Shown here one piece after another: positions 49,126 through 61,246 of a stretch of DNA of 64,000 bases. The notes beneath the pieces are model-generated. The model saw only the letters and a program-made list of their open reading frames with translations. It was not told the DNA's origin and ran no database searches. The DNA is taken from the NCBI GenBank assembly GCA_963745835.1, contig CAVUZH010000022.1, positions 288,001-352,000 of the forward strand. Reading direction: 5' to 3'. Position 1 is the first letter of the stretch. Every line of letters starts with the position of its first letter. Position numbers and translations under genes: made by a program. The DNA is from an uncultured delta proteobacterium (lineage in GTDB: Bacteria > Desulfobacterota > Binatia > UBA9968).

Positions 49126-50043
49126 TTATTTTTTTGATTGAGTTGCTTCGGCACTTGCGGCGCTTCTAAACGCGTTGAGAATGGTCTTGCTGATCGCTTC
49201 TGCTGACTTGTCAGTAGTATTCACAACCAAATCGGCTTGAGCGTAATGAGGCGTTCTGCGATCCAGAATGGCCTTCAGCTGCTTGCGGACATCGGGATGC
49301 GCGCTCAGGCGCCTTCTGTCTTTTCCCGTCTGAACGCGGTCGATCAACGTTTCGGGGGCGGCCTGAAGCCAGACCACAAAAGTATGCAGCTTCAGGCGAA
49401 GCAGGCTGTTTGGGTTCATCACCAGTCCGCCGCCGGCTGCGATCACCCCTGGGGTTTTCTTCAGTATTCGCTCGAGGATCCTTTCCTCGACCGCGCGGTA
49501 ATAATTCTCCCCTTCCAAATCGAAAATCTCGGGGAGCGAAAGTCCTGTGTCTTTAACGATCAGCGCATCCAATTCGTAAAACGGCACTTTGAGGCGCCGC
49601 GCCAGGATATTGCCGACCGTAGTTTTTCCGGCGCCGCGCATTCCGATGAGCGAGATATGGGGGCCCTCTGAGCCGTCCAGATAGGACGACAAACAGCTCA
49701 GGATTCGAGAGATTTGCTCATCCGGCCGGTTTTTTAAAAGCGCCATAACCTGCTTCACAGACGTGCTTGAATCCTGCGTGTTAGCTTGATTATCACTGGG
49801 CAGAAGATCCGTCAGCGAAGTCTGCAGGGCATCGGCTAGGTTAATCACGCTCGCCAATGACGGATTGGCGTTGCCTTTTTCGACCTCGATAAGGAAGCGA
49901 TCGCTCAACCCGGAGAGCTGCGCCACCCGTTTGAGAGTTATACCCCGTCGTTGGCGCAACTTCCGGACCTCCTGGCCCAGCTTTGCCAAGTAAAGCCGGC
50001 TAGGATCAGCGGTATTTGATTCGCCGGCGCTTCGTTTTGCCAT
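49126..50043 (-). CDS. XRE-HTH/shikimate-kinase-like regulator (BzdR/BoxR family)
   Basis: N-terminal HTH (LSGLSDRFLIEVEKG.ANPS) fused to LIGMRGAGKTTVG kinase-like domain. Confidence 0.88.
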   Translation of the reverse strand: MAKRSAGESNTADPSRLYLAKLGQEVRKLRQRRGITLKRVAQLSGLSDRFLIEVEKGNANPSLASVINLADALQTSLTDLLPSDNQANTQDSSTSVKQVMALLKNRPDEQISRILSCLSSYLDGSEGPHISLIGMRGAGKTTVGNILARRLKVPFYELDALIVKDTGLSLPEIFDLEGENYYRAVEERILERILKKTPGVIAAGGGLVMNPNSLLRLKLHTFVVWLQAAPETLIDRVQTGKDRRRLSAHPDVRKQLKAILDRRTPHYAQADLVVNTTDKSAEAISKTILNAFRSAASAEATQSKK

Positions 50044-51201: not shown

Positions 51202-52047
51202 TCACATACGGTCTTGAGAAGATCGGAGCCCTCTGAACACCCGCTCGTCTTGGTGGCAGACGATACAGGAAGCTTGCCCGCGCTCTTCCAAATTGGAGAC
51301 AAGCGCATACGTCAATCCATTGTCCGACCATGTGAGCACTTTCCAACCATTTACAGATTGAAAATGAAACCGCAGCCCTTCCCAAAGGATCTCTTCACCA
51401 CCTGATGGTCGCGCCACCGCATCCGAGGTCACCACCAAAGAGATCGGGTGACCCTTTAGGCGATAAACAATATAGGCTGCATAATCTTCCTTGAACCCGA
51501 CCAAACGTCCGCCTTCGACGTGGTAAGGCTTCGGTTCCGCCGCCTGCGGATAATCAGGCAGTTTCAAATTGAAGCCGAGCTTTCCGGCGAACCAGGTGGA
51601 AATCTTTTCAGGCGATTCGCTGAACACTTCTAGGGGTAACTGTCCCTTGAGGTACCGCACATGATTGTTGACGGCCATGGTAACAAACGAGCCGCGGTCT
51701 TCTTGGAGAGAGTTTGGCACAGCCAGCCAAAAAGCAGCGAACGCGAGCAGCAAAAGAGCGCAGGCCGCAATGATTGGCCGCGAACAAACAAATTTGGTTC
51801 GCCTGCCTGAGCTCTGCACCAGCTGGGCAACGTTTGCCTGCAATGATGCCGGAGCCGTATAAACCGGACGCGCGCTGCGTATCGCCGAAACCAACTCACG
51901 CTCGGCCTCCAAAGCGGCACGGCAGTCGGGGCAGCTCTTGATGTGTGTTTCCACAGCCAAGCGCTCGCCGTTCTGGAGCTCGTCGTCCAGATACAACGGG
52001 ATATGTTCTAGAATGTGATTATCCACTTCCACGCTTTCGCCGCACAA
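51202..52047 (-). CDS. Zinc-finger anti-sigma factor with C-terminal CxxCH
   Basis: YLDDEL..HIKSCPDC ZAS motif, one TM, periplasmic GGRL..W....YALVS domain, terminal CIVCH. Confidence 0.88.
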   Translation of the reverse strand: MCGESVEVDNHILEHIPLYLDDELQNGERLAVETHIKSCPDCRAALEAERELVSAIRSARPVYTAPASLQANVAQLVQSSGRRTKFVCSRPIIAACALLLLAFAAFWLAVPNSLQEDRGSFVTMAVNNHVRYLKGQLPLEVFSESPEKISTWFAGKLGFNLKLPDYPQAAEPKPYHVEGGRLVGFKEDYAAYIVYRLKGHPISLVVTSDAVARPSGGEEILWEGLRFHFQSVNGWKVLTWSDNGLTYALVSNLEERGQASCIVCHQDERVFRGLRSSQDRM

Positions 52048-52603
52048 CCATTAAGGCATTGGTTTTCTCAGCCAACATACTGCGAAGTTCCGCCCGCGCG
52101 CGATTCAAACGGGACATGACGGTTCCGGCGGGGCATCCCAAGATCGATGCGATTTGCCGGTAGCTGAATCCTTCGAAATAACGGAGCACCACGACTTCAC
52201 GAAACATTTCCGGCAAGCCTGAAATCGCCAGACGAATCTTTCCGGAGATCACGTTGCGCTCAAAATGATCCTCCGGGCGCTCTCGCTCATCGGACAACCA
52301 TGGTTGCAGCGGACCGCCGTCGATTCGATGTTTTCCCAGCAGAACAAACTCCGGCCCGTTGGCACGCCGGCGCCATTCATTGATCCAGATGTTGCGCAGA
52401 ATAGTAAAAAGCCACACTTTGGGATCGCTCTTAATGGCGGTGTGGGTCATTCCTTTGATGGCGCGGAGGCAGGCCTCTTGGACTAAGTCCTCGGCGTCCG
52501 TGCGATTGCTAGTCAAAGTCATGGCGAATCCGTAGAGCGCGCCAAGGTTTTCGAGAATAGCGTGCTCACCGTTGCCAGACGCTGTTTTCCGGAATCGGAT
52601 CAC
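52019..52603 (-). CDS. ECF RNA polymerase sigma factor
   Basis: DAEDLVQE, WLFTILRN, FSY.QIA.ILGCPAGTVMSRL.RAR. Confidence 0.95.
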   Translation of the reverse strand: MIRFRKTASGNGEHAILENLGALYGFAMTLTSNRTDAEDLVQEACLRAIKGMTHTAIKSDPKVWLFTILRNIWINEWRRRANGPEFVLLGKHRIDGGPLQPWLSDERERPEDHFERNVISGKIRLAISGLPEMFREVVVLRYFEGFSYRQIASILGCPAGTVMSRLNRARAELRSMLAEKTNALMVVRRKRGSG

Positions 52604-52774
52604 AGCAGATACTCCTTGCCAGAGAATCCGTCGCCGACTTTTTTATTTCAACCCAATCACGCTGCTTAATTAAACCTCTCTCGTTTTCATGTCAATCACA
52701 AACCGCGACCCGCGCGAGAACGAAAATTAGGAGAACTGACGCTGGTAATCTATTTGCTCCCTACGGAAAACCCG

Positions 52775-52801
52775 GGAATAAATTTCCCCCTCGGTTGTCT
52801 T
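52775..52801 (+). promoter_or_regulatory. Putative ECF-sigma promoter for the downstream cluster
   Basis: GGAATAAA-N14-GTCT, ~67 bp before ATG 52868. Confidence 0.55.
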
Positions 52802-52867
52802 TATCTAATAGCAGCTCAAAACAGCTCTGGCCGTGAGATCGAAGCGCTCGATTGTGGGAGGCAAGCT

Positions 52868-53623
52868 ATGTCCCATCGCTGTGTATTTTCCTTCGCCTTT
52901 TCTAAGCGCGTGTGGCTCTCGCTCGCGCTTGCAGCGATCCCCCCTTCTGGCGCCTGGTCTTATGAAGAAATTAAGGTTGCCGACGGCGGCACGATCGAGG
53001 GAAAGGTCGTGTTCCGAGGCACCGTGCCGAGTCCCCGGAAGGTGATTCCGACGCAGGATCAAGAGGTTTGCGGCGGGCCAAGAGACGAGCCGCGGCTCGT
53101 TCTTGGATCCGATAACACCGTCCCGGGAGCCGTTGTTTTCTTGAAGGGAGTCGAGAAAGGCAAAGCGTTCGAAAAGCCCAAGAAGCCTCCGGTTGTTGAT
53201 AACGCGAAGTGCAAGTTCGAGCCTGAGATTCAGGTCGTCCCGGCCGGGACGGAAATCCTGATCCTCAACTCGGACCCCGTGCTCCATAACACCCATGGTT
53301 ATCTCTTGACCGATAGCCGCAGGGGACGCACGGTTTTCAATCAGGCGTTGCCGCAAAAGGGACAACAGGTAAAATCGACCCTCAAATCGCCGGGGGTAGT
53401 GGACGTCGCATGCGACGTCCACGGTTGGATGCAGGGCTGGATCGTGGTGGCGGACAACCCGTATTTCGCGGTGACCGAAAAAAACGGCACCTTTGCGATC
53501 AAAGACATCCCGCCGGGAAAATACACCTTGGCTACTTTTCAACCTTATGTCGGAGTCAGAGAAACGCCGGTTACCGTTGAGTCGAAGAAAACCAACAACA
53601 TCAACGTCGAGCTAAAAAAATAG
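52868..53623 (+). CDS. Exported cupredoxin-like / carboxypeptidase-regulatory-domain protein
   Basis: Signal peptide; NSDPVLHNTH ... CDVHGWM (His/Cys/His/Met); G.F.IKDIPPGKYTL; start refined to ATG 52868 after GGGAGG. Confidence 0.8.
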   Translation: MSHRCVFSFAFSKRVWLSLALAAIPPSGAWSYEEIKVADGGTIEGKVVFRGTVPSPRKVIPTQDQEVCGGPRDEPRLVLGSDNTVPGAVVFLKGVEKGKAFEKPKKPPVVDNAKCKFEPEIQVVPAGTEILILNSDPVLHNTHGYLLTDSRRGRTVFNQALPQKGQQVKSTLKSPGVVDVACDVHGWMQGWIVVADNPYFAVTEKNGTFAIKDIPPGKYTLATFQPYVGVRETPVTVESKKTNNINVELKK

Positions 53624-53667: not shown

Positions 53668-54807
53668 ATGAGCGACTTTGACCGTGAACGGCGCGAGGCT
53701 CAACGTGAATTGCACAACCCTGATCGGAGGCCCGATCCATCTCTCAGTATAACGCGGCGAACTTTCCTTCATAAGTCGTTAGTAGCGGGAGCTGTAACCG
53801 GAGCGGCGACGTATGGATGGTTTCCGTTGATCAATACGCTGACTCTGGCTCATGGGGCGCAAGCCGCGTTTAGCTTTGCCTGGCTTTCCGATACACACCT
53901 CTACCCCAAGAACGTCAATACGCGCTTTGTCGAGAAAGCCGTACGGGCGGTGAAAGAAATCCAGGCCATGAAGCCGGCGGCGGATTTTCTTATGTTCGGT
54001 GGCGATCTGGCCCAACTTGCCGACCCTGTAGAGCTGCGCCTCGGCAACGACATTCTCAAGGAAATAACCATCAAAAAGCATTTTATTCCCGGCGAGCACG
54101 ATTGGTATCTGGACATGGGGAAAACCTGGAATAGTCTATTCGGCAATTCACCTTGGACCTTTGAACATAAAGGCGTCCAGTTCATAGGCCTGGATACAGT
54201 GAGTCGAGCGCCTGACTATTGGTCAGCGACCAAGATGACCCCGAAAGAGAGGATGGGTCACATGGCTGGGCTGGACGGAACAGTGGCTGGACCATGGGCC
54301 GGGGTAGGCGGCGACCAGCTGCAGTGGCTGAACAAAACGCTTTCGCCTTTACCCAAAGACAGAGCGATCGTAATTTTCAGTCATAATCCTCTCTACGAGT
54401 ACTATCCTCCATGGAATTTCTGGGTCCGTGATTGGCGCCAAGTTCATGAGGTTCTCAAGCCCTATACCAATGTCACGAATATCCACGGTCATACACATCA
54501 GGTCCTCTACAACGAAATCGGTACGATGAGATCGATCGGCATGCTAGCGACTTCATGGCCATGGCCCTATGCGCCGGAAGGAGTTCCCACGCTGACCAAG
54601 CCGATGATCCGAGTAAATCCCGGAGATCACTTTGACGGCGTCGGCTGGGGGAAAATTACCGTGAGCGCGGCGCCAAAGGTCGATTACGAATACATGATGT
54701 GGCGTAAAGCCGTTTATGCAGAAGCGGAAGTTGATTCGGGTACCGGCGACAACAACAACCAGAGATTGAGACCGCGGATCGCCGATCAAATGTGGCCTTA
54801 TAAATGA
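53668..54807 (+). CDS. Tat-exported calcineurin-like metallophosphoesterase
   Basis: TRRTFL Tat motif; DTH, GD, GEHD, H, GHTH metal motifs. Confidence 0.9.
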   Translation: MSDFDRERREAQRELHNPDRRPDPSLSITRRTFLHKSLVAGAVTGAATYGWFPLINTLTLAHGAQAAFSFAWLSDTHLYPKNVNTRFVEKAVRAVKEIQAMKPAADFLMFGGDLAQLADPVELRLGNDILKEITIKKHFIPGEHDWYLDMGKTWNSLFGNSPWTFEHKGVQFIGLDTVSRAPDYWSATKMTPKERMGHMAGLDGTVAGPWAGVGGDQLQWLNKTLSPLPKDRAIVIFSHNPLYEYYPPWNFWVRDWRQVHEVLKPYTNVTNIHGHTHQVLYNEIGTMRSIGMLATSWPWPYAPEGVPTLTKPMIRVNPGDHFDGVGWGKITVSAAPKVDYEYMMWRKAVYAEAEVDSGTGDNNNQRLRPRIADQMWPYK

Positions 54808-54839: not shown

Positions 54840-55298
54840 ATGAGAAAGATTCTCCCGTGGCACGCTGGACTGCTTCTCATAGCAGTATTTCTTTTCGTTT
54901 TTGCTTCTCGAATGGATCATGTCCTGGCGCACAAGGAAAAACATACCCCGGAACAACTCAAAGCATTCTTTGACGTTTTCATGGAGCAGGTGCGGGTCGG
55001 GGATCTCTTGTTTCACGGCGATGGCGAGATGGAAAAAAAGCTCGGAACAAATTTATCTCGGACCGGTATGGCCTGCGCCATGTGTCACCCCTTTGCATCG
55101 GACACACACCCGCACGAATTTCCTAAGTTTGGGGAACAGACTCAGGAGTTCGCGACCTTGCGGGATATGATCAACTGGTGCATCGAGAATCCAAACGAGG
55201 GCGAAAGAATCGACGTCAACGGCCCTGCCATGAAAGCAATGGAAGCGTATATTTACTGGTCTAACAAAGGCTCAGTGTTGGATGCGGGGAAACACTAG
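54840..55298 (+). CDS. Monoheme c-type cytochrome, TsdA/SoxA-like domain
   Basis: Signal peptide; CAMCH; TLRDMINWC...G...MKAMEAYIYW. Confidence 0.75.
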   Translation: MRKILPWHAGLLLIAVFLFVFASRMDHVLAHKEKHTPEQLKAFFDVFMEQVRVGDLLFHGDGEMEKKLGTNLSRTGMACAMCHPFASDTHPHEFPKFGEQTQEFATLRDMINWCIENPNEGERIDVNGPAMKAMEAYIYWSNKGSVLDAGKH

Positions 55299-55554
55299 CG
55301 GCCAGCTCAAAAGCCTCATATGCTTCGTTGCCCTCAATTGACTAGCTGCAACGTACTGTCTGAGTATGCTTCCGCTCGTCGATATTTCGCACGCTTGGTC
55401 TCTGAGATCATTTTGAGCAGCCTGCAATCGCAGTTTTCAGCTACTGGTTGACTAAATTGGTCTCTGGGAAAAGGGATAAGCCAAGGTGAGGGTGCATGCT
55501 GATCACACATAACCCGCTGATCAAAGTAGGGAAATATTGCAGGCAACATCTAAG

Positions 55555-56385
55555 ATGAATTCTCCGGATATTTCCCGAAGAAGTTTCTGCAGGTGGAGTT
55601 CTTCACTTGTGTTGGCGGGAATCTTTACAGGTCTGAAGAATCGGCTGGGGCTGGCGCTTGATCCGGAATCGCCGGACGGCATGCTGACGGATATGCATAC
55701 GCCCAGGCTGATTCTGCCGACTATGACACGAAATGGAAATCAAGTTCCTGTCGTCGTCAAGATGAACCATCCGATGGAATTGGGCCATTACATCCGACGA
55801 GTTGAGTTCCGTAACGAAACCGACCCGATTCCCTCCAAAGGGATTTTCCACCCCACCGCCGCTAATGGTGAGACCTACTTGGCTTTCCAAGCCCGAATGG
55901 ACAGCGGCACCTCGACAGTCCTCGCTATCGCCGAATGCAGTTTACACGGGACTTGGATCGCCCGCCGCCAGATTACGATTCCCGATGGGCAAGGCGGCTG
56001 CGCCACGGTCGGCGTGCCCAAAGACGCTGCGGCCACAGAAGAGATTGTCCCGCCCGTGATCAGGATTCCTGAATTGGTCCGCAGGAACCGCCTGACTAAA
56101 GGAGAAATGGCCGAGGTCCAGGTCCAATTCAAACACCCAAGCAAGACCGGTCTTGCTTATGATGATAAAAAATTCGTCCAGATCGAAGAGCCTTTCTACA
56201 TCACATCGATGCAGGTTCTGTACGGGGAGCGCTTGGTCAGCCGCTACGAAATGACCGCAGGTTTGAGCGACAATCCCTTTTTGAAGTTCAAGCTCAAGTT
56301 CACAGAAGAAAAACCCATTCGGGTTGTTTTTACCAACAGTAGGGGCCGGCAATTCAGCGCCAGCGCGCCGGTGGTTCTATCTTAA
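55555..56385 (+). CDS. Tat-exported SoxY-SoxZ-like fusion protein
   Basis: SRRSF Tat motif; NG..VPV.V and GGC arm (SoxY-like); HP..TGL, FYI, LSDNPFLKF, V.FTNSRG (SoxZ-like). Confidence 0.82.
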   Translation: MNSPDISRRSFCRWSSSLVLAGIFTGLKNRLGLALDPESPDGMLTDMHTPRLILPTMTRNGNQVPVVVKMNHPMELGHYIRRVEFRNETDPIPSKGIFHPTAANGETYLAFQARMDSGTSTVLAIAECSLHGTWIARRQITIPDGQGGCATVGVPKDAAATEEIVPPVIRIPELVRRNRLTKGEMAEVQVQFKHPSKTGLAYDDKKFVQIEEPFYITSMQVLYGERLVSRYEMTAGLSDNPFLKFKLKFTEEKPIRVVFTNSRGRQFSASAPVVLS

Positions 56386-56390
56386 ACTTC

Positions 56391-57602
56391 ATGGGCCGGC
56401 TCTCGCTGACAGCGGCGGTTATCCTGATCGGCATACTTTGGAAGCTCGTCCCAGGAAAGACATTATCGGAGATGTTGGGATCGACAGGAGCGGACGGTGT
56501 TGTTGCGGGCAGCGCCGAACCGGCGGCCAGCTTTCATAACAAGCCGCTTCCAGCTGCCCAGTGCGGCTTTTGCCACCCCAGACACTATGACGAATGGCGC
56601 CGCTCATCTCACGCGAGCTCTCTGAGGTCCGATGATTTTGTCAGGACATTCTCGCAATATCTCGACTCGGTCGGCGAGCAGGCGCGAGAAGATTCGCAAT
56701 CATCCATGGCTTGTCTTTCGTGCCATGCCCCTCTTCTGAAACATGCCGAGCCGGGAATCGTTGGTCAGGTCGCCGGTTTTGTGCTGGCCCGGGAAACAGA
56801 AAAACTAGCCGGCTTCGAAGTTGGTTGTGTCGCTTGTCACGTTGCTGGAAACCGCGTCTTTGCCGGCCCGATCGAAAAGCCGCAGAACAATCCGTTCCAC
56901 CTTTCAAAATTTTCCCCGTCCTACAGAGAAGCGTCGTTTTGCGCCGATTGCCACACCTGGACTGCCTCTACGATTCCCTGCTCCAACGTCTACACGGACT
57001 GGAAGCTAAGCCGAGCGGCCAAAGCAGGGACAACCTGCCAGTCCTGCCACATGGCTGAGACCAGCGGCAGCGCCGCTGCCGGAGGACCCGAGAGAAAAAT
57101 ACACGACCATGGTTTTCCGGGCGCAGGTTCGGCCGCCATGCTGCAAAAAACAGTGGTGCTTGGTCTGAAAGCCAACTTTCCGAAGAATCGTCTCGAAGTG
57201 ACCGCCACGATCCGCAATCTTACTCCTCATCGGGTGCCCGATGGCTGACCGTGGAACAGCTACGCGGTCCTGGAGGTGACCGTAGCGGATGAAACCGGAT
57301 GGGAATTCGAGACCATAAAACGGACCTACGCCAATTTCGGCATCGATAAAAATGGCGAGAGTACTGGGATCGCTTGGAAGATTGTCAGGCAATCGCCGGA
57401 TTCAACGGCATTGAGAGCGGAGGAAGTTCGCATAGAAAAAATCAGTTTTAACGTCGAGCCGCGGGACGGCAAGCGATTCACGATCCAGGCGAGGATGCGT
57501 TACCAGTACGCGCCCGCGCCACAGGATGGCTCCCGTCAAGAGAGTGACGGCAGGCAAATGGCGCAGGCAACCTTAACGCTACCGGGCAAGCGCCCGTCTT
57601 AG
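56391..57602 (+). CDS. Pentaheme c-type cytochrome, probable selenoprotein (UGA at 57246-57248 = Sec286; 403 aa)
   Basis: Five CxxCH motifs; ORFs 56391-57248 and 57276-57602 are in frame and separated only by TGA in HRVPDG-U-PW; SECIS-like hairpin follows. Confidence 0.85.
57259..57286 (+). other. Bacterial SECIS-like hairpin
   Basis: GCTAC/GTAGC and GGTC/GACC stems with a small G-containing apical loop (UGGA) starting ~23 nt after the UGA. Confidence 0.75.
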
Positions 57603-57620: not shown

Positions 57621-59027
57621 ATGGCAGATCACGTGATTGAAAACGGCAACGAGGTCATCAACCCAGAGCTGATCAAGGGTTGGCTGCTTTGGGGGTTCGT
57701 CTGGGTGCTTTTAGCGCCGACCCTCGGCGTTATCATCTCGACCAAGTTCACCTATCCCGAATTTTTGGAGGGAGTCCCGGCGCTGACGTTCGGCAGGTTA
57801 CGGCCGATTCACGTCAATGGCGTGATCTTCGGGACTTTTTCGACTCTCTTCATCGGGCTTTGCTACTACATTGTGCCCAAGCTGGCGCAGGTCCGGATCT
57901 ACAAAGAGGAATGGGGCTATCCCATGCTTTGGATCTGGAACCTGGCTCTGATCGCCGGCTTCGTCTCGCTCGCTCTGGGATACAATCAAGGCCTTGAAGC
58001 CGCCGAGTTTCCTCTTGTCATCGACATCATCATCTGGATTGCCTTGCTCGCCGTTACAGTCCAATTTCTCGTTACCGTGGCGCGGCGCAAGGAGCCGGGA
58101 CTTTACGTGAGCCTCTGGTATCTGATTGCCGCTCTGGTTTGGATGGATATCAACTGGCCGTTCGGCAACTTTATTATTCCGTACGCGATCCCCGGCATAA
58201 ACAATGCCGCGCTCCATGGTCTCTACATCCATTACATCGTGGGGCTCTGGATCACGCCCGCTGGCTATGTGCTGATCTATTATTTCCTGCCGGCAAGCGT
58301 TAGAAATCCGATCTACAGTCATAAGCTTTCGCTGATCGGCTTCTGGTCTCTCGCGCTCTTTTATCCATTCGTCGGCATTCATCACTATCTATTCAGTCCG
58401 ATCGCCGACTGGGCGGAGACGATTTCGATTATGATGAGCGTTTTGCTGATTTTGCCCGTGTGGACGGTGCTGCAAAATTTTTTCGGCACGATGATTGGGC
58501 GCTGGCAAGGCTTCGCCGGTAATCTCACCGCCAAATTCCTCATCACGGGCGCCCTCATGTACATTATCGGTTGTTTTCAAGGATCGACCGAGGCGCTGCA
58601 GGCCTTGCAGCGGCCCACCCATTTTACCGACTTCGTCATCGCGCACTCACACCTGACGATCTTCGGCACGTTCGTGCTTTGGGCTCTCGCAGGAGTCGTC
58701 TATGTCTGGCCGCGCGTGACCGGCCGCGAGCTCTATAGTTTCCGGATGGCCAACTGGGGCTATTGGCTGATCACCATGGGCATCTCCGCCATGGGTGTGA
58801 TTCTGACAGCACAAGGATTACAGCAAGGTTTCATGCTGATTGCCGGCGCAGAGTGGCTCGACTCGCTTGTCTCCATGCACCCCTTCTGGTGGTTCAGAAC
58901 GTTTTCGGGGATCTCCATGGACGTGGGTATGAGTCTTCTCCTGCTTAGCTTGTTGTGGGGACCGAAGTCGCCGGCGGCGGAATCATCTCTGGCACGCCAC
59001 CCGCAAACCGCGCCTGCGGCCGTTTAG
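57621..59027 (+). CDS. ccoN: cbb3-type (C-family) heme-copper oxidase subunit I, divergent
   Basis: FGRLRPIHVNGVIFG, HYIVG, YYFLP, YSHKL, YPFVGIHH, HFTDFVIAHSH: six His ligands and the helix VII Tyr. Confidence 0.85.
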   Translation: MADHVIENGNEVINPELIKGWLLWGFVWVLLAPTLGVIISTKFTYPEFLEGVPALTFGRLRPIHVNGVIFGTFSTLFIGLCYYIVPKLAQVRIYKEEWGYPMLWIWNLALIAGFVSLALGYNQGLEAAEFPLVIDIIIWIALLAVTVQFLVTVARRKEPGLYVSLWYLIAALVWMDINWPFGNFIIPYAIPGINNAALHGLYIHYIVGLWITPAGYVLIYYFLPASVRNPIYSHKLSLIGFWSLALFYPFVGIHHYLFSPIADWAETISIMMSVLLILPVWTVLQNFFGTMIGRWQGFAGNLTAKFLITGALMYIIGCFQGSTEALQALQRPTHFTDFVIAHSHLTIFGTFVLWALAGVVYVWPRVTGRELYSFRMANWGYWLITMGISAMGVILTAQGLQQGFMLIAGAEWLDSLVSMHPFWWFRTFSGISMDVGMSLLLLSLLWGPKSPAAESSLARHPQTAPAAV

Positions 59028-59040
59028 GAAAGAAAACAGA

Positions 59041-60696
59041 ATGCGATACGCAAAAACAGTAGCTGTCATTGCCGGCTTTGGCTTCATAACCCTGGCGCTT
59101 TTTGTCCAGGGACTTCTCCCCGCCCTGCTCCCGGAATCGCGCTCGGAGACAGTCTCACGGGCGGTCAGGACCCGTCTCACCGAGCTCAAATGGATCGAGT
59201 ACCCGGCTGAGAACTACACGGAGCTGGAGCAATTAGGAAGGCAAGTCTATATTCGAGAAGGCTGTTGGTATTGTCACTCTCAATATATCCGCCCGGTCAC
59301 CGGCGAAGATCAACGCTGGGGGCCGGTTTCCCAGGCGGGAGAATACGCCTTCGATGTGCCCCACCTGTTTAGCACCCGCAGGATCGGACCCGACCTCACT
59401 CGCGTCGGGCTGAAATACAGCGACCACTGGCATTTCGCCCATCACTGGAATCCGCGCTTGGTGGTGCCTGACTCGAACATGCCCTCTTTCCCTTGGCTGT
59501 ACGAGCAGATCACGGTCGGATTGGTGGAAAAAGATGGAAAGCTCGCCTTTAAAGACGATTCCGCGCTGCGCAAGATTTTTACCTTCAAAGAAGGAAGCGA
59601 AATCCAGATCCTGCCCAATATCGATGGGCTCGCTTTCGCTCGGGAGCGCGATGGAGTTCCGGTATTAAACTTCGATCCGTTGCCTGACCCGCCAAAGACA
59701 AAAACAATCACCATCGTCACGCCGACGCGAGAGGCGGAGGGATTGGTCGCTTATATTCAGAAGCTCGGCATGAATCGCGGCCAGTGGCGCGACCTCTTCG
59801 AACCTCAACGGGTTTTTGTCAGCCAGTTCTCCATTCCGGAGTCCCAGGACTGGATAGCTCACGGCAAGGAAGTTTACCTCCGGCGCTGCGTCGGTTGCCA
59901 TGGCGAGAAAGGAGACGGCAACGGTCCGGCAGCGACGTTTCTCAGTCCGCGACCACGCGACTTCAGGGACGCGGTCTTCAAATTTCGCATCACCCCGTCA
60001 GGCGCCCTGCCAACCGAAGGCGATCTTTACCGGACGATTACGCGCGGCATCCGCGGCACGGCGATGCCGCCCTGGCACGAGATTCCGGAAAAACAGCGCC
60101 TGGCGGTGATTCTATTTATCAAGACTTTCTCACCGGCCTGGAAAGACAAAAATTTGAAGGAAGCGCCGGTTAATCTTCCCGATCCTCCCGCGCCCAGCGA
60201 AGAGCTCATCGCTCAGGGCGAGAAACTTTATATCAACGAAGGAAAGTGCTGGAACTGCCATGGCGGTCCCGGGATAAAGGACAACCAACCGTTCAACTAT
60301 CCCTGGGGCCGGGGCCCATCGGCGCCGACTTTGAAAGACGATTGGGGCTTCCCCTTGCTCGCGAGCGATTTCACGACAGGAATATTTAAGTCGGGATCCG
60401 ACGTGACCGATATTTTTCGGACCATGAGCACGGGTCTGAACGGCGCAGCCATGCCGTCTTTCGCTACCAACCTGACCGATGAACAGCGCTGGGCCATCTC
60501 CTACTACGTGCTGAGCCTTTCCGCTTATCTCGATCCGCTGCATCAAAAGAAGCTCCAGATCCCGGAGCAGGTGAAGGCCGCGCTCGACGATCCGAATTTA
60601 AAGACGCCGACATGGCGAGCGGCGTTCGATCCGACAAAAGCGGAAACAGCGGTAGCCGGTGAAAGACCCAAGAACTATCTTAGGATCTCGGAATGA
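59041..60696 (+). CDS. ccoO: CcoO fused to two further cytochrome c domains (triheme)
   Basis: YIREGCWYCHSQYIRP, RRIGPDL, S.MPSF (CcoO), then CVGCH..GTAMP and CWNCH..GAAMP. Confidence 0.85.
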   Translation: MRYAKTVAVIAGFGFITLALFVQGLLPALLPESRSETVSRAVRTRLTELKWIEYPAENYTELEQLGRQVYIREGCWYCHSQYIRPVTGEDQRWGPVSQAGEYAFDVPHLFSTRRIGPDLTRVGLKYSDHWHFAHHWNPRLVVPDSNMPSFPWLYEQITVGLVEKDGKLAFKDDSALRKIFTFKEGSEIQILPNIDGLAFARERDGVPVLNFDPLPDPPKTKTITIVTPTREAEGLVAYIQKLGMNRGQWRDLFEPQRVFVSQFSIPESQDWIAHGKEVYLRRCVGCHGEKGDGNGPAATFLSPRPRDFRDAVFKFRITPSGALPTEGDLYRTITRGIRGTAMPPWHEIPEKQRLAVILFIKTFSPAWKDKNLKEAPVNLPDPPAPSEELIAQGEKLYINEGKCWNCHGGPGIKDNQPFNYPWGRGPSAPTLKDDWGFPLLASDFTTGIFKSGSDVTDIFRTMSTGLNGAAMPSFATNLTDEQRWAISYYVLSLSAYLDPLHQKKLQIPEQVKAALDDPNLKTPTWRAAFDPTKAETAVAGERPKNYLRISE

Positions 60697-60771: not shown

Positions 60772-60927
60772 ATGCTCGAGCTAATCACGTTGATAGAATT
60801 CATTGTTGCCTTTCTGATGGGACTTGCGGCTTGCTGCTTTCTCTTCTGGGGAATTCTCGATGGCGCCTTCGACAATCTCGAAGATATCAAGCACCGGATT
60901 CTGGAGATTGAAAAAGATGAACCATGA
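60772..60927 (+). CDS. ccoS: cbb3 oxidase maturation protein CcoS (51 aa, below ORF-track cutoff)
   Basis: MLELITLIEFIVAFLMGLAACCFLFWGILDGAFDNLEDIKHRILEIEKDEP; TM followed by W...G.FD.LE. Confidence 0.75.
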   Translation: MLELITLIEFIVAFLMGLAACCFLFWGILDGAFDNLEDIKHRILEIEKDEP

Positions 60928-61246
60928 ACATCGCAGCTCGGACGAGCTTGAACACTACGCCGGTGGCGAGATCCAGGCGCGCCACGGGATCGTCAACAGA
61001 TGGCTGCTGGGACTGTATGCCGTGCTCTTTCTCTGGTCGATTCACTACCTGATTGGGCCGTTCGATGGACTGCGGCCGACGTTTGAATTTTGGGGCTGGG
61101 GAGGGTTAGGGGCGGGATTATCCAGCAAGGGCGCAGAACAAGGAGTCGAAGGACTCCAAGTCATCGGTGTGATCGCCCTTTCGATCGTCATGATTTCGGT
61201 CGCCGGCTTCTTTATTTGGGTTGTGATTCTAGCGCGGAAGAAATAA
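60917..61246 (+). CDS. Small membrane protein resembling the CcoP N-terminal segment
   Basis: HYAGGEIQARHGIVNRWLL.LY..L..W...Y; two TM segments; no heme motif. Confidence 0.55.
   Translation: MNHEHRSSDELEHYAGGEIQARHGIVNRWLLGLYAVLFLWSIHYLIGPFDGLRPTFEFWGWGGLGAGLSSKGAEQGVEGLQVIGVIALSIVMISVAGFFIWVVILARKK

Follow-up and report, generated by a model that had tools for sequence, protein, structure and literature searches.

The closest described relative of the gene reported here is MccSep, the product of gsu2937-2936 (extKL) in Geobacter. According to the main text of a 2026 study (PMC13510729), MccSep is a periplasmic homotetramer with five hemes, in which heme 2 has His/Cys ligation with C239 as the Cys ligand, and its selenocysteine (Sec), U325 in the motif HSIPDGUP, extends from a C-terminal immunoglobulin-like domain. 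Polysulfide is its better substrate and selenite a poorer one, both being reduced, and sulfur respiration requires the enzyme. The Sec and the heme-ligating Cys are both essential, and a U325C variant lost most of its activity. A 2026 review (PMC13188914) also counts this multiheme family among the selenoproteins; the family is already known and, having been characterised biochemically and structurally in 2026 (PMC13510729), is no longer obscure. Here we describe a gene that almost certainly belongs to the MccSep/ExtKL superfamily in DNA from an uncultured delta proteobacterium (Desulfobacterota, Binatia). The stretch analysed, referred to as the window, comprises 64,000 nt (positions 288001-352000 of contig 22 in a 7.28-Mb assembly that is 97.1% complete). 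The gene lies at 56391-57602 on the plus strand and would encode a pentaheme selenoprotein of 403 amino acids, with Sec at residue 286 (codon 57246-57248, plus strand) in the motif HRVPDG-U-PW.

Public data present this gene as two open reading frames (ORFs) of 285 and 108 amino acids. The ATG-started ORF at 56391-57248 and the ORF ending at 57602 share a frame, with the TGA at 57246-57248 between them, and the read-through product of 403 amino acids contains HRVPDG-U-PWNSYAVLEVTV. Five CxxCH heme-binding motifs are encoded ahead of the UGA at 56562-57050 (residues 58-62, 108-112, 146-150, 184-188 and 216-220, with cysteines C58, C108, C146, C184 and C216), together with an additional cysteine, Cys197 of the motif IPCS (codon 56979-56981), which by alignment is the counterpart of C239, the distal ligand of heme 2 in MccSep. 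The first start available to the downstream frame is a GTG at 57276 (ORF 57276-57602). Because the GGAG in front of this GTG abuts it immediately, with zero spacer, and because the nine codons from the TGA to the GTG are kept at the amino-acid level in close loci while they change synonymously, the downstream ORF is not a separate gene. A global reassignment of TGA is also not indicated, since TGA terminates 12 of the 33 non-overlapping ORFs of at least 250 amino acids in the window, that is, 11 others besides the selenoprotein ORF. An earlier interpretation made from the letters of the window alone, the sequence-only reading, had claimed a shared frame split only by this TGA, a downstream ORF without a convincing ribosome-binding site, and five CxxCH motifs plus an extra Cys ahead of the UGA; each of these was borne out, and the 403-residue selenoprotein that it proposed is supported by the homologs with TGA or Cys, the conserved hairpin and the Sec machinery described below.

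We compared the gene with its counterparts in 14 close loci, six of them from species genomes (metagenome-assembled genomes labelled Candidatus Binatia or Deltaproteobacteria) and eight from metagenomes. Two of the 14 stop short of the UGA site, and all 12 that cover it have TGA there. In the close loci that contain all 117 codons past the TGA, the protein sequence encoded by them is 72-84% identical, and TGA is also found at the equivalent codon in 16 more distant genome loci. When protein-database clusters matching at E 4e-58 or better were collected (110 clusters), 101 were found to terminate exactly at residue 285, six to pass through the site with Cys (PDGCPW), and three to be shorter fragments. 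The C-terminal piece is called separately in the database as proteins of 108 amino acids (clusters P0125 and P0131, for example), and the Cys-type homologs are single uninterrupted proteins. Homologs with Cys or TGA at position 286 and similarity on both sides, for which the sequence-only reading had proposed a search, therefore exist in both forms. Judged from these sequences, the pattern is the classic signature of a Sec/Cys pair, which excludes sequencing error, a pseudogene and a pair of distinct genes. We consider it very likely that the UGA at 57246 is recoded as Sec.

Bacterial Sec insertion sequence (SECIS) elements, as modelled in section 5 of PMC13188914, have an apical loop of 3-9 nt above a 4-16 bp upper stem, GG or GU as the first two loop nucleotides, a distance of 16-37 nt from the UGA to the apical loop, and a free energy of -7.5 kcal/mol or lower. 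We aligned 48 nt from the UGA in 27 Sec-type genes (26 distinct rows), namely that of the window, those of 10 close relatives, and 16 genes found in other genomes of the phylum, with 21-42% protein identity to that of the window. The full Sec-type set spans 21-80% protein identity to the window's, and two close loci that are identical to L024 over this region were left out. A predicted SECIS hairpin at 57264-57283 (plus strand) starts 15 nt past the UGA. Its stem (57264-57269 with 57278-57283) pairs in 156 of 156 alignment cells, compared with 26-67% when the partner is shifted by 1-3 columns. The innermost stem pair has changed on both sides in three sequences (C-G in 23, G-C in 2, U-A in 1), and four stem pairs vary one-sidedly, with G-C or C-G exchanged for G-U or U-G. 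RNAalifold adds two pairs (57270-57276 and 57271-57275), a one-base bulge (57277) and a GGA apical loop (57272-57274) that is flanked by a U-G pair and starts 23 nt after the UGA. In the close family, four- and six-fold degenerate codons of invariant residues are frozen in 4 of 4 cases within the hairpin and in 5 of 54 elsewhere (Fisher p 3e-4). The 20-nt hairpin has an energy of -8.0 kcal/mol and becomes the minimum-energy fold when pairing of the first 15 nt is disallowed.

The hairpin agrees with the bacterial model cited above in all four respects: a 3-nt loop on eight pairs with one bulge, GG at the start of the loop, a distance of 23 nt, and an energy of -8.0 kcal/mol. The sequence-only reading had drawn a hairpin at 57259-57286 with a G-containing loop about 23 nt from the UGA and had suggested comparison with the bacterial consensus. 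That hairpin is present in the sequence, its spacing stands within the 16-37 nt given in section 5 of PMC13188914, and its inner part is conserved; its outer arm, GCTAC/GTAGC, is not, and we rejected this arm as specific to the window because relatives such as L021 and L022 carry uncompensated changes there. We also rejected an alternative minimum-energy fold, in which the UGA region pairs with a 5' arm, because synonymous changes in relatives break its pairing. The support for the candidate SECIS is comparative and not thermodynamic.

The genome encodes the machinery for Sec insertion, as the sequence-only reading had proposed to check. We found selA (608.6 bits, cut-off 267.9), selB (394.3 bits, cut-off 242.25) and selD (383.4 bits, cut-off 125) adjacent to one another at 65479-70161 of contig 22 (L009, L001 and L010), approximately 220 kb upstream of the window and on the same contig. 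The selD gene itself contains a single in-frame TGA at position 69265 of this contig, in the motif AG-U-AAKLG, and corresponds to a selenoprotein SelD. One tRNA-Sec with anticodon TCA (74.2 bits) was found on contig 13. A second Rfam match to tRNA-Sec (47.3 bits) was rejected, being assigned to tRNA-Leu by ARAGORN.

The read-through protein resembles MccSep/ExtKL (GSU2937-2936 of Geobacter sulfurreducens; 9wt8 and 9wt9; NF040886) in its five CxxCH motifs, in the Sec of an H-x-x-P-D-G-U loop, in a conserved Cys at the distal position of heme 2, in a C-terminal immunoglobulin-like domain that carries the Sec (as described in the main text of PMC13510729), and in a SECIS hairpin at equal spacing. 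With the NCBIfam model NF040886, built for the multiheme (seleno)protein ExtKL, the protein aligns at E 1.3e-35 over residues 56-379, a span that includes the UGA-encoded residue. The MccSep structure sequences (9wt8 and 9wt9) match the window protein at E 2.2e-7, with U325 placed on Sec286 and C239 on Cys197, and HRVPDGUPW is aligned to HSIPDGUPT of 9wt8; a profile of 24 Sec- and Cys-type sequences matches the same structure sequences at E 6e-76. The likeness to Geobacter ExtKL to which the sequence-only reading had pointed is real. The five CxxCH motifs are invariant across these 24 sequences, as is Cys197 (24/24), which alignment suggests to be a heme ligand. In an alignment of 268 homologs, Cys197 occurs together with truncation at the TGA (114 proteins) or with Cys at position 286 (15 proteins) in a total of 129, and the majority of the rest lack both features. 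The exceptions are four proteins with C197 and E, D or N at 286, one with Leu197 and Cys286, one truncated protein with Ala197, and a second truncated protein that does not cover position 197. Homologs without Cys197 mostly have a hydrophobic or small residue at 286.

An AlphaFold2 model built from 80 sequences (predicted local distance difference test 88.3, predicted template-modelling score 0.81) consists of a helical domain followed by a beta-sandwich. A Foldseek search of the model against PDB (library to April 2026) returned only 5ze8 and generic beta-sandwiches, and no 9wt8 or 9wt9 entry. The protein 5ze8, pentaheme cytochrome c552 of Thermochromatium tepidum, is both the best fold match to the model (E 6.2e-17, template-modelling score 0.62) and the best single-sequence PDB match to the window protein (E 5.2e-12), and the H-x-x-P-x-G motif is common to both. 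Unlike the window protein, 5ze8 lacks the Sec/Cys catalytic pair, because Ala replaces Sec.

In order to place the gene within the family we used a quick maximum-likelihood tree of 47 rows (support from the Shimodaira-Hasegawa approximate likelihood-ratio test only, midpoint root for drawing only). The group containing the window protein (9 rows, support 100) is separate from the canonical group (16 rows, support 99), both lie inside a 30-row Sec/Cys-type set (support 99), and close Cys forms are nested among Sec forms. Canonical MccSep members are approximately 21-25% identical to the window protein and have UPS, UPT or ULW at the Sec, whereas the window protein has UPW. The gene is uncommon in its own class, with a match at E 1e-30 or better in 3 of 201 sampled genomes; in the phylum, matches at E 1e-10 or better were found in 80 of 401 sampled genomes, mostly to canonical or non-Sec relatives. 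Both genome sets are samples and not censuses.

The genes around the selenoprotein gene are all encoded on the plus strand with short gaps, and the selenoprotein gene is the fifth of them. The cluster begins with a cupredoxin-like protein (52754-53623; a His followed by Cys-x2-His-x2-Met) that carries a carboxypeptidase-regulatory-like domain. It is followed by a metallophosphoesterase with a twin-arginine signal (53668-54807), which belongs to the SoxB superfamily but is not SoxB, and by a monoheme cytochrome c of the SoxA/TsdA type (54840-55298) with the heme motif CAMCH and an INWC motif whose Cys aligns with the cysteine that ligates heme in SoxA and TsdA. The fourth gene (55537-56385, start probably at the ATG at 55555) encodes a carrier-like protein in which SoxY and SoxZ are fused; it has a twin-arginine signal, and its carrier-Cys motif is GGC. 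This fused protein and its relatives, of which our search recovered many close copies, also match the Pfam family Desulfoferrodoxin and are often named 'desulfoferrodoxin (superoxide reductase-like protein)' by JGI; the match probably reflects a shared beta-sandwich fold, and the name is probably misleading.

Only 18 nt past the stop of the selenoprotein gene begins a cbb3-type heme-copper oxidase subunit I (CcoN-like; 57621-59027). It matches 3mk7 (CcoN of Pseudomonas stutzeri) at E 1.8e-53 and nitric oxide reductase NorB at 4.3e-10, and retains the aligned CuB histidines (His, His-His) and the helix-VII cross-link Tyr of 3mk7, and its score of 216 bits is under the NCBIfam ccoN cut-off of 583. 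The next gene (59041-60696) encodes a CcoO-like (FixO) subunit (FixO domain at E 9.6e-44) fused to two further cytochrome c domains. A conserved 140-residue ORF with hydrophobic stretches (60824-61246, plus strand), syntenic in relatives and without a match in a Pfam search, could encode a small oxidase subunit or an assembly factor, and a CtaG-type assembly factor is encoded downstream of the cluster. Divergently oriented on the minus strand (51202-52603) and syntenic with the cluster are genes for an extracytoplasmic function (ECF) sigma factor (52019-52603) and a zf-HC2 anti-sigma factor (51202-52047). The window also contains, at 49126-50043 on the minus strand, a helix-turn-helix domain fused to a shikimate kinase domain.

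In all 14 close loci the genes follow the same order up to the ends of the contigs. The sequence-only reading had singled out as new the position of the selenoprotein between SoxYZ and an oxygen-reducing oxidase; this arrangement, with an oxidase of the cbb3 type, recurs in every related locus of sufficient length. Of all the operon members, the selenoprotein is the least conserved and the fastest-evolving (61-85% identity; L021-L046), whereas the oxidase subunits in the same genomes are 84-98% identical (CcoN 84-97%). This setting differs from the Geobacter ext cluster, which, according to the abstract of PMC5877670, contains ExtI, a putative porin of the outer membrane, along with putative c-type cytochromes. 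The cluster recalls the canonical Sox system (SoxAX, SoxYZ, SoxB, SoxCD) in its SoxY and SoxZ domains with the GGC motif, its SoxA-type domain and its secreted metallophosphoesterase of the SoxB superfamily. Unlike in that system, SoxY and SoxZ are fused, the SoxA-like protein is single-domain and scores 30.2 bits against a cut-off of 110, and no SoxB match was found in the genome (97.1% complete), whose one SoxY and one weak SoxA-type match are both in the selenoprotein cluster. We found neither SoxX nor SoxCD in the cluster, nor did we see a reductase-type electron input module there.

Among more distant relatives, a Sec-type protein (PDT-U-PW) with 37% identity, from another family of the class (L081, G417:C36, 7296-10547, minus strand), is followed by genes for a sulfur transporter of the YeeE/YedE type (E 4.7e-52) and for a fused SoxYZ that shares its three-domain signature with the SoxYZ of the window. 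Another locus, L078, is cut at its 5' end and was left out of the comparison. The canonical genes show no SoxYZ or oxidase within the approximately 1.5 kb of short flanks available. Two other loci, L050 and L064, encode pentaheme cytochromes that belong to the wider family but have neither the Cys nor the Sec (GHxIPSGS); each 3.8-kb locus also contains a SoxYZ-like match, and therefore the link of this cytochrome fold to SoxYZ-like carriers may extend beyond the selenoproteins.

Sec decoding at the UGA of one periplasm-facing, MccSep/ExtKL-type pentaheme enzyme of 403 residues, encoded in a conserved operon, is the best explanation of these observations and, in our judgement, highly probable. 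Several findings pull the other way. The window protein scores 122.8 bits with NF040886, below the cut-off of 250; the cut-off is also missed by P0003, a sister of the Cys type (137.7), and by two deeper-branching relatives with U-P-W (181 and 173.6), whereas canonical Sec-type loci score 414-467 in 7 of 7 tested. Of two catalytically important residues of MccSep, a profile alignment places Arg83 on Asp81 of the window protein, with Arg85 nearby, and Lys372 on Ile331, with Lys330 adjacent. Single-sequence folds of 45 and 60 nt are no better than shuffles (z -0.29 and -1.15), and an Rfam scan of 57150-57400 with E up to 10 matched no family. The stem coincides with a conserved (A/V)VLE(V/A)T strand, and selection on the protein accounts for some of its conservation; because the stem encodes this strand and the aligned rows share ancestry, the shuffle control overstates the support for the stem. 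The genome bin has an estimated contamination of 9.33%, although the Sec genes share the contig of the window. Over the 12 kb covered around a relative with 42% identity (G036), we saw no SoxYZ, no oxidase and no YeeE/YedE-type transporter.

If the UGA were an ordinary stop, the locus would consist of a truncated cytochrome of 285 residues and a separate gene of 108, or of a pseudogene. Public gene calls do split the locus in this way, and there are many 285-residue clusters as well as 108-residue ones such as P0125 and P0131; set against them are the TGA at the same codon in all 12 close loci that cover the site and in 16 more distant ones, protein-level conservation of the nine codons before the first start, a GGAG that abuts the GTG at 57276, and Cys-type homologs that are single proteins, and we give this explanation almost no chance. 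Scarcely better is the chance that the UGA is read through without selenium, for instance by near-cognate insertion of Cys or Trp. Six close homologs tolerate Cys at the site, but the genome has a complete Sec pathway that includes a selenoprotein SelD, the SECIS-type hairpin is conserved at a fixed spacing, and the main text of PMC13510729 reports the loss of most activity in MccSep U325C.

According to the preferred interpretation, Sec decoding, SelB and tRNA-Sec would decode the UGA at 57246 under the direction of the short downstream hairpin. The predicted product has an N-terminal helical domain with five hemes and a C-terminal immunoglobulin-like domain that would hold Sec286 in a PDGU loop. 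We regard SelB-dependent Sec insertion, and a pentaheme enzyme with the Cys-heme and Sec active site of MccSep, as shown or strongly supported. By analogy with the Geobacter enzyme, Cys197 would ligate heme 2 on its distal side, and Sec286 may attack sulfur-sulfur (or selenium) bonds near Cys197 and heme 2; homology likewise suggests a Sec-S-Cys intermediate at heme 2, with the other hemes moving electrons. From the gene context, electrons could pass from sulfide, polysulfide or the sulfane sulfur of the SoxY cysteine through the five hemes to the cbb3-type oxidase.

The direction of the reaction is where the readings diverge. The role that seems most likely to us, though we propose it tentatively, is oxidation, with the enzyme working with SoxYZ and feeding the oxidase in the reverse of the Geobacter reaction. 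We favor this direction because of the conserved operon, in which a cupredoxin, a metallophosphoesterase, a SoxA/TsdA-like cytochrome, a fused SoxYZ, the selenoprotein and a cbb3-type oxidase are encoded together. The authors of the MccSep study suggest in their Discussion that MccSep chemistry may be the reverse of the TsdA and SoxAX reaction (PMC13510729). SoxAX and TsdA, which act in thiosulfate oxidation, likewise use a His/Cys-ligated heme on sulfur-sulfur bonds, and a cytochrome of the SoxA/TsdA type is encoded two genes upstream of the selenoprotein; they have no sequence relationship to the selenoprotein, and neither contains Sec. The only characterised member of the family is a reductase, which counts against oxidation. 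The protein might instead be a Geobacter-like periplasmic reductase or detoxifier of polysulfide (or selenite), with its proximity to the oxidase reflecting shared regulation or electron supply. The reduction of polysulfide and selenite by that member depends on the Sec and the heme-ligating Cys, according to the main text of PMC13510729, and the window protein keeps both. A reductase of this kind fits less well with a gene order shared with SoxYZ, the SoxA/TsdA-type cytochrome and the cbb3-type oxidase in all close loci, with a gap of just 18 nt to ccoN, and with a cluster in which no reductase-type electron input module was seen, and we consider it somewhat less likely than oxidation.

The main text of PMC13510729 names Desulfobacterota and Nitrospirota as the main hosts of the family and places the homolog set (n=637) in the supplement; a search of this main text by terms returned no mention of Binatia, of SoxY or of a SoxYZ/oxidase context. 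Our literature search found no paper tying a multiheme selenoprotein to SoxYZ, nor Binatia to Sec. Relative to that main text, what is new is the divergent branch and its setting between sulfur-carrier genes and an oxygen-reducing oxidase. Public annotation names the split pieces hypothetical proteins or partial cytochromes. Because public calls split the gene and its NF040886 scores fall below the threshold, a whole selenoprotein branch has probably been missed in these genomes.

The MccSep family was shown in 2026 to contain the long-sought polysulfide reductase of sulfur respiration, as the main text of PMC13510729 reports. The operon tie to a sulfur carrier and an oxygen reductase suggests that sulfur oxidation, too, may draw on this selenium-sulfur-heme chemistry. 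It is possible, if somewhat more doubtful than the oxidizing direction itself, that the operon is a previously undescribed sulfur-oxidation module, dependent on selenium and independent of SoxB and SoxCD, in which the enzyme runs in reverse in an oxygen-respiring bacterium. If this is true, these bacteria would carry out selenium-dependent sulfur oxidation without SoxB or SoxCD and would pass the electrons to a dedicated cbb3-type oxidase.

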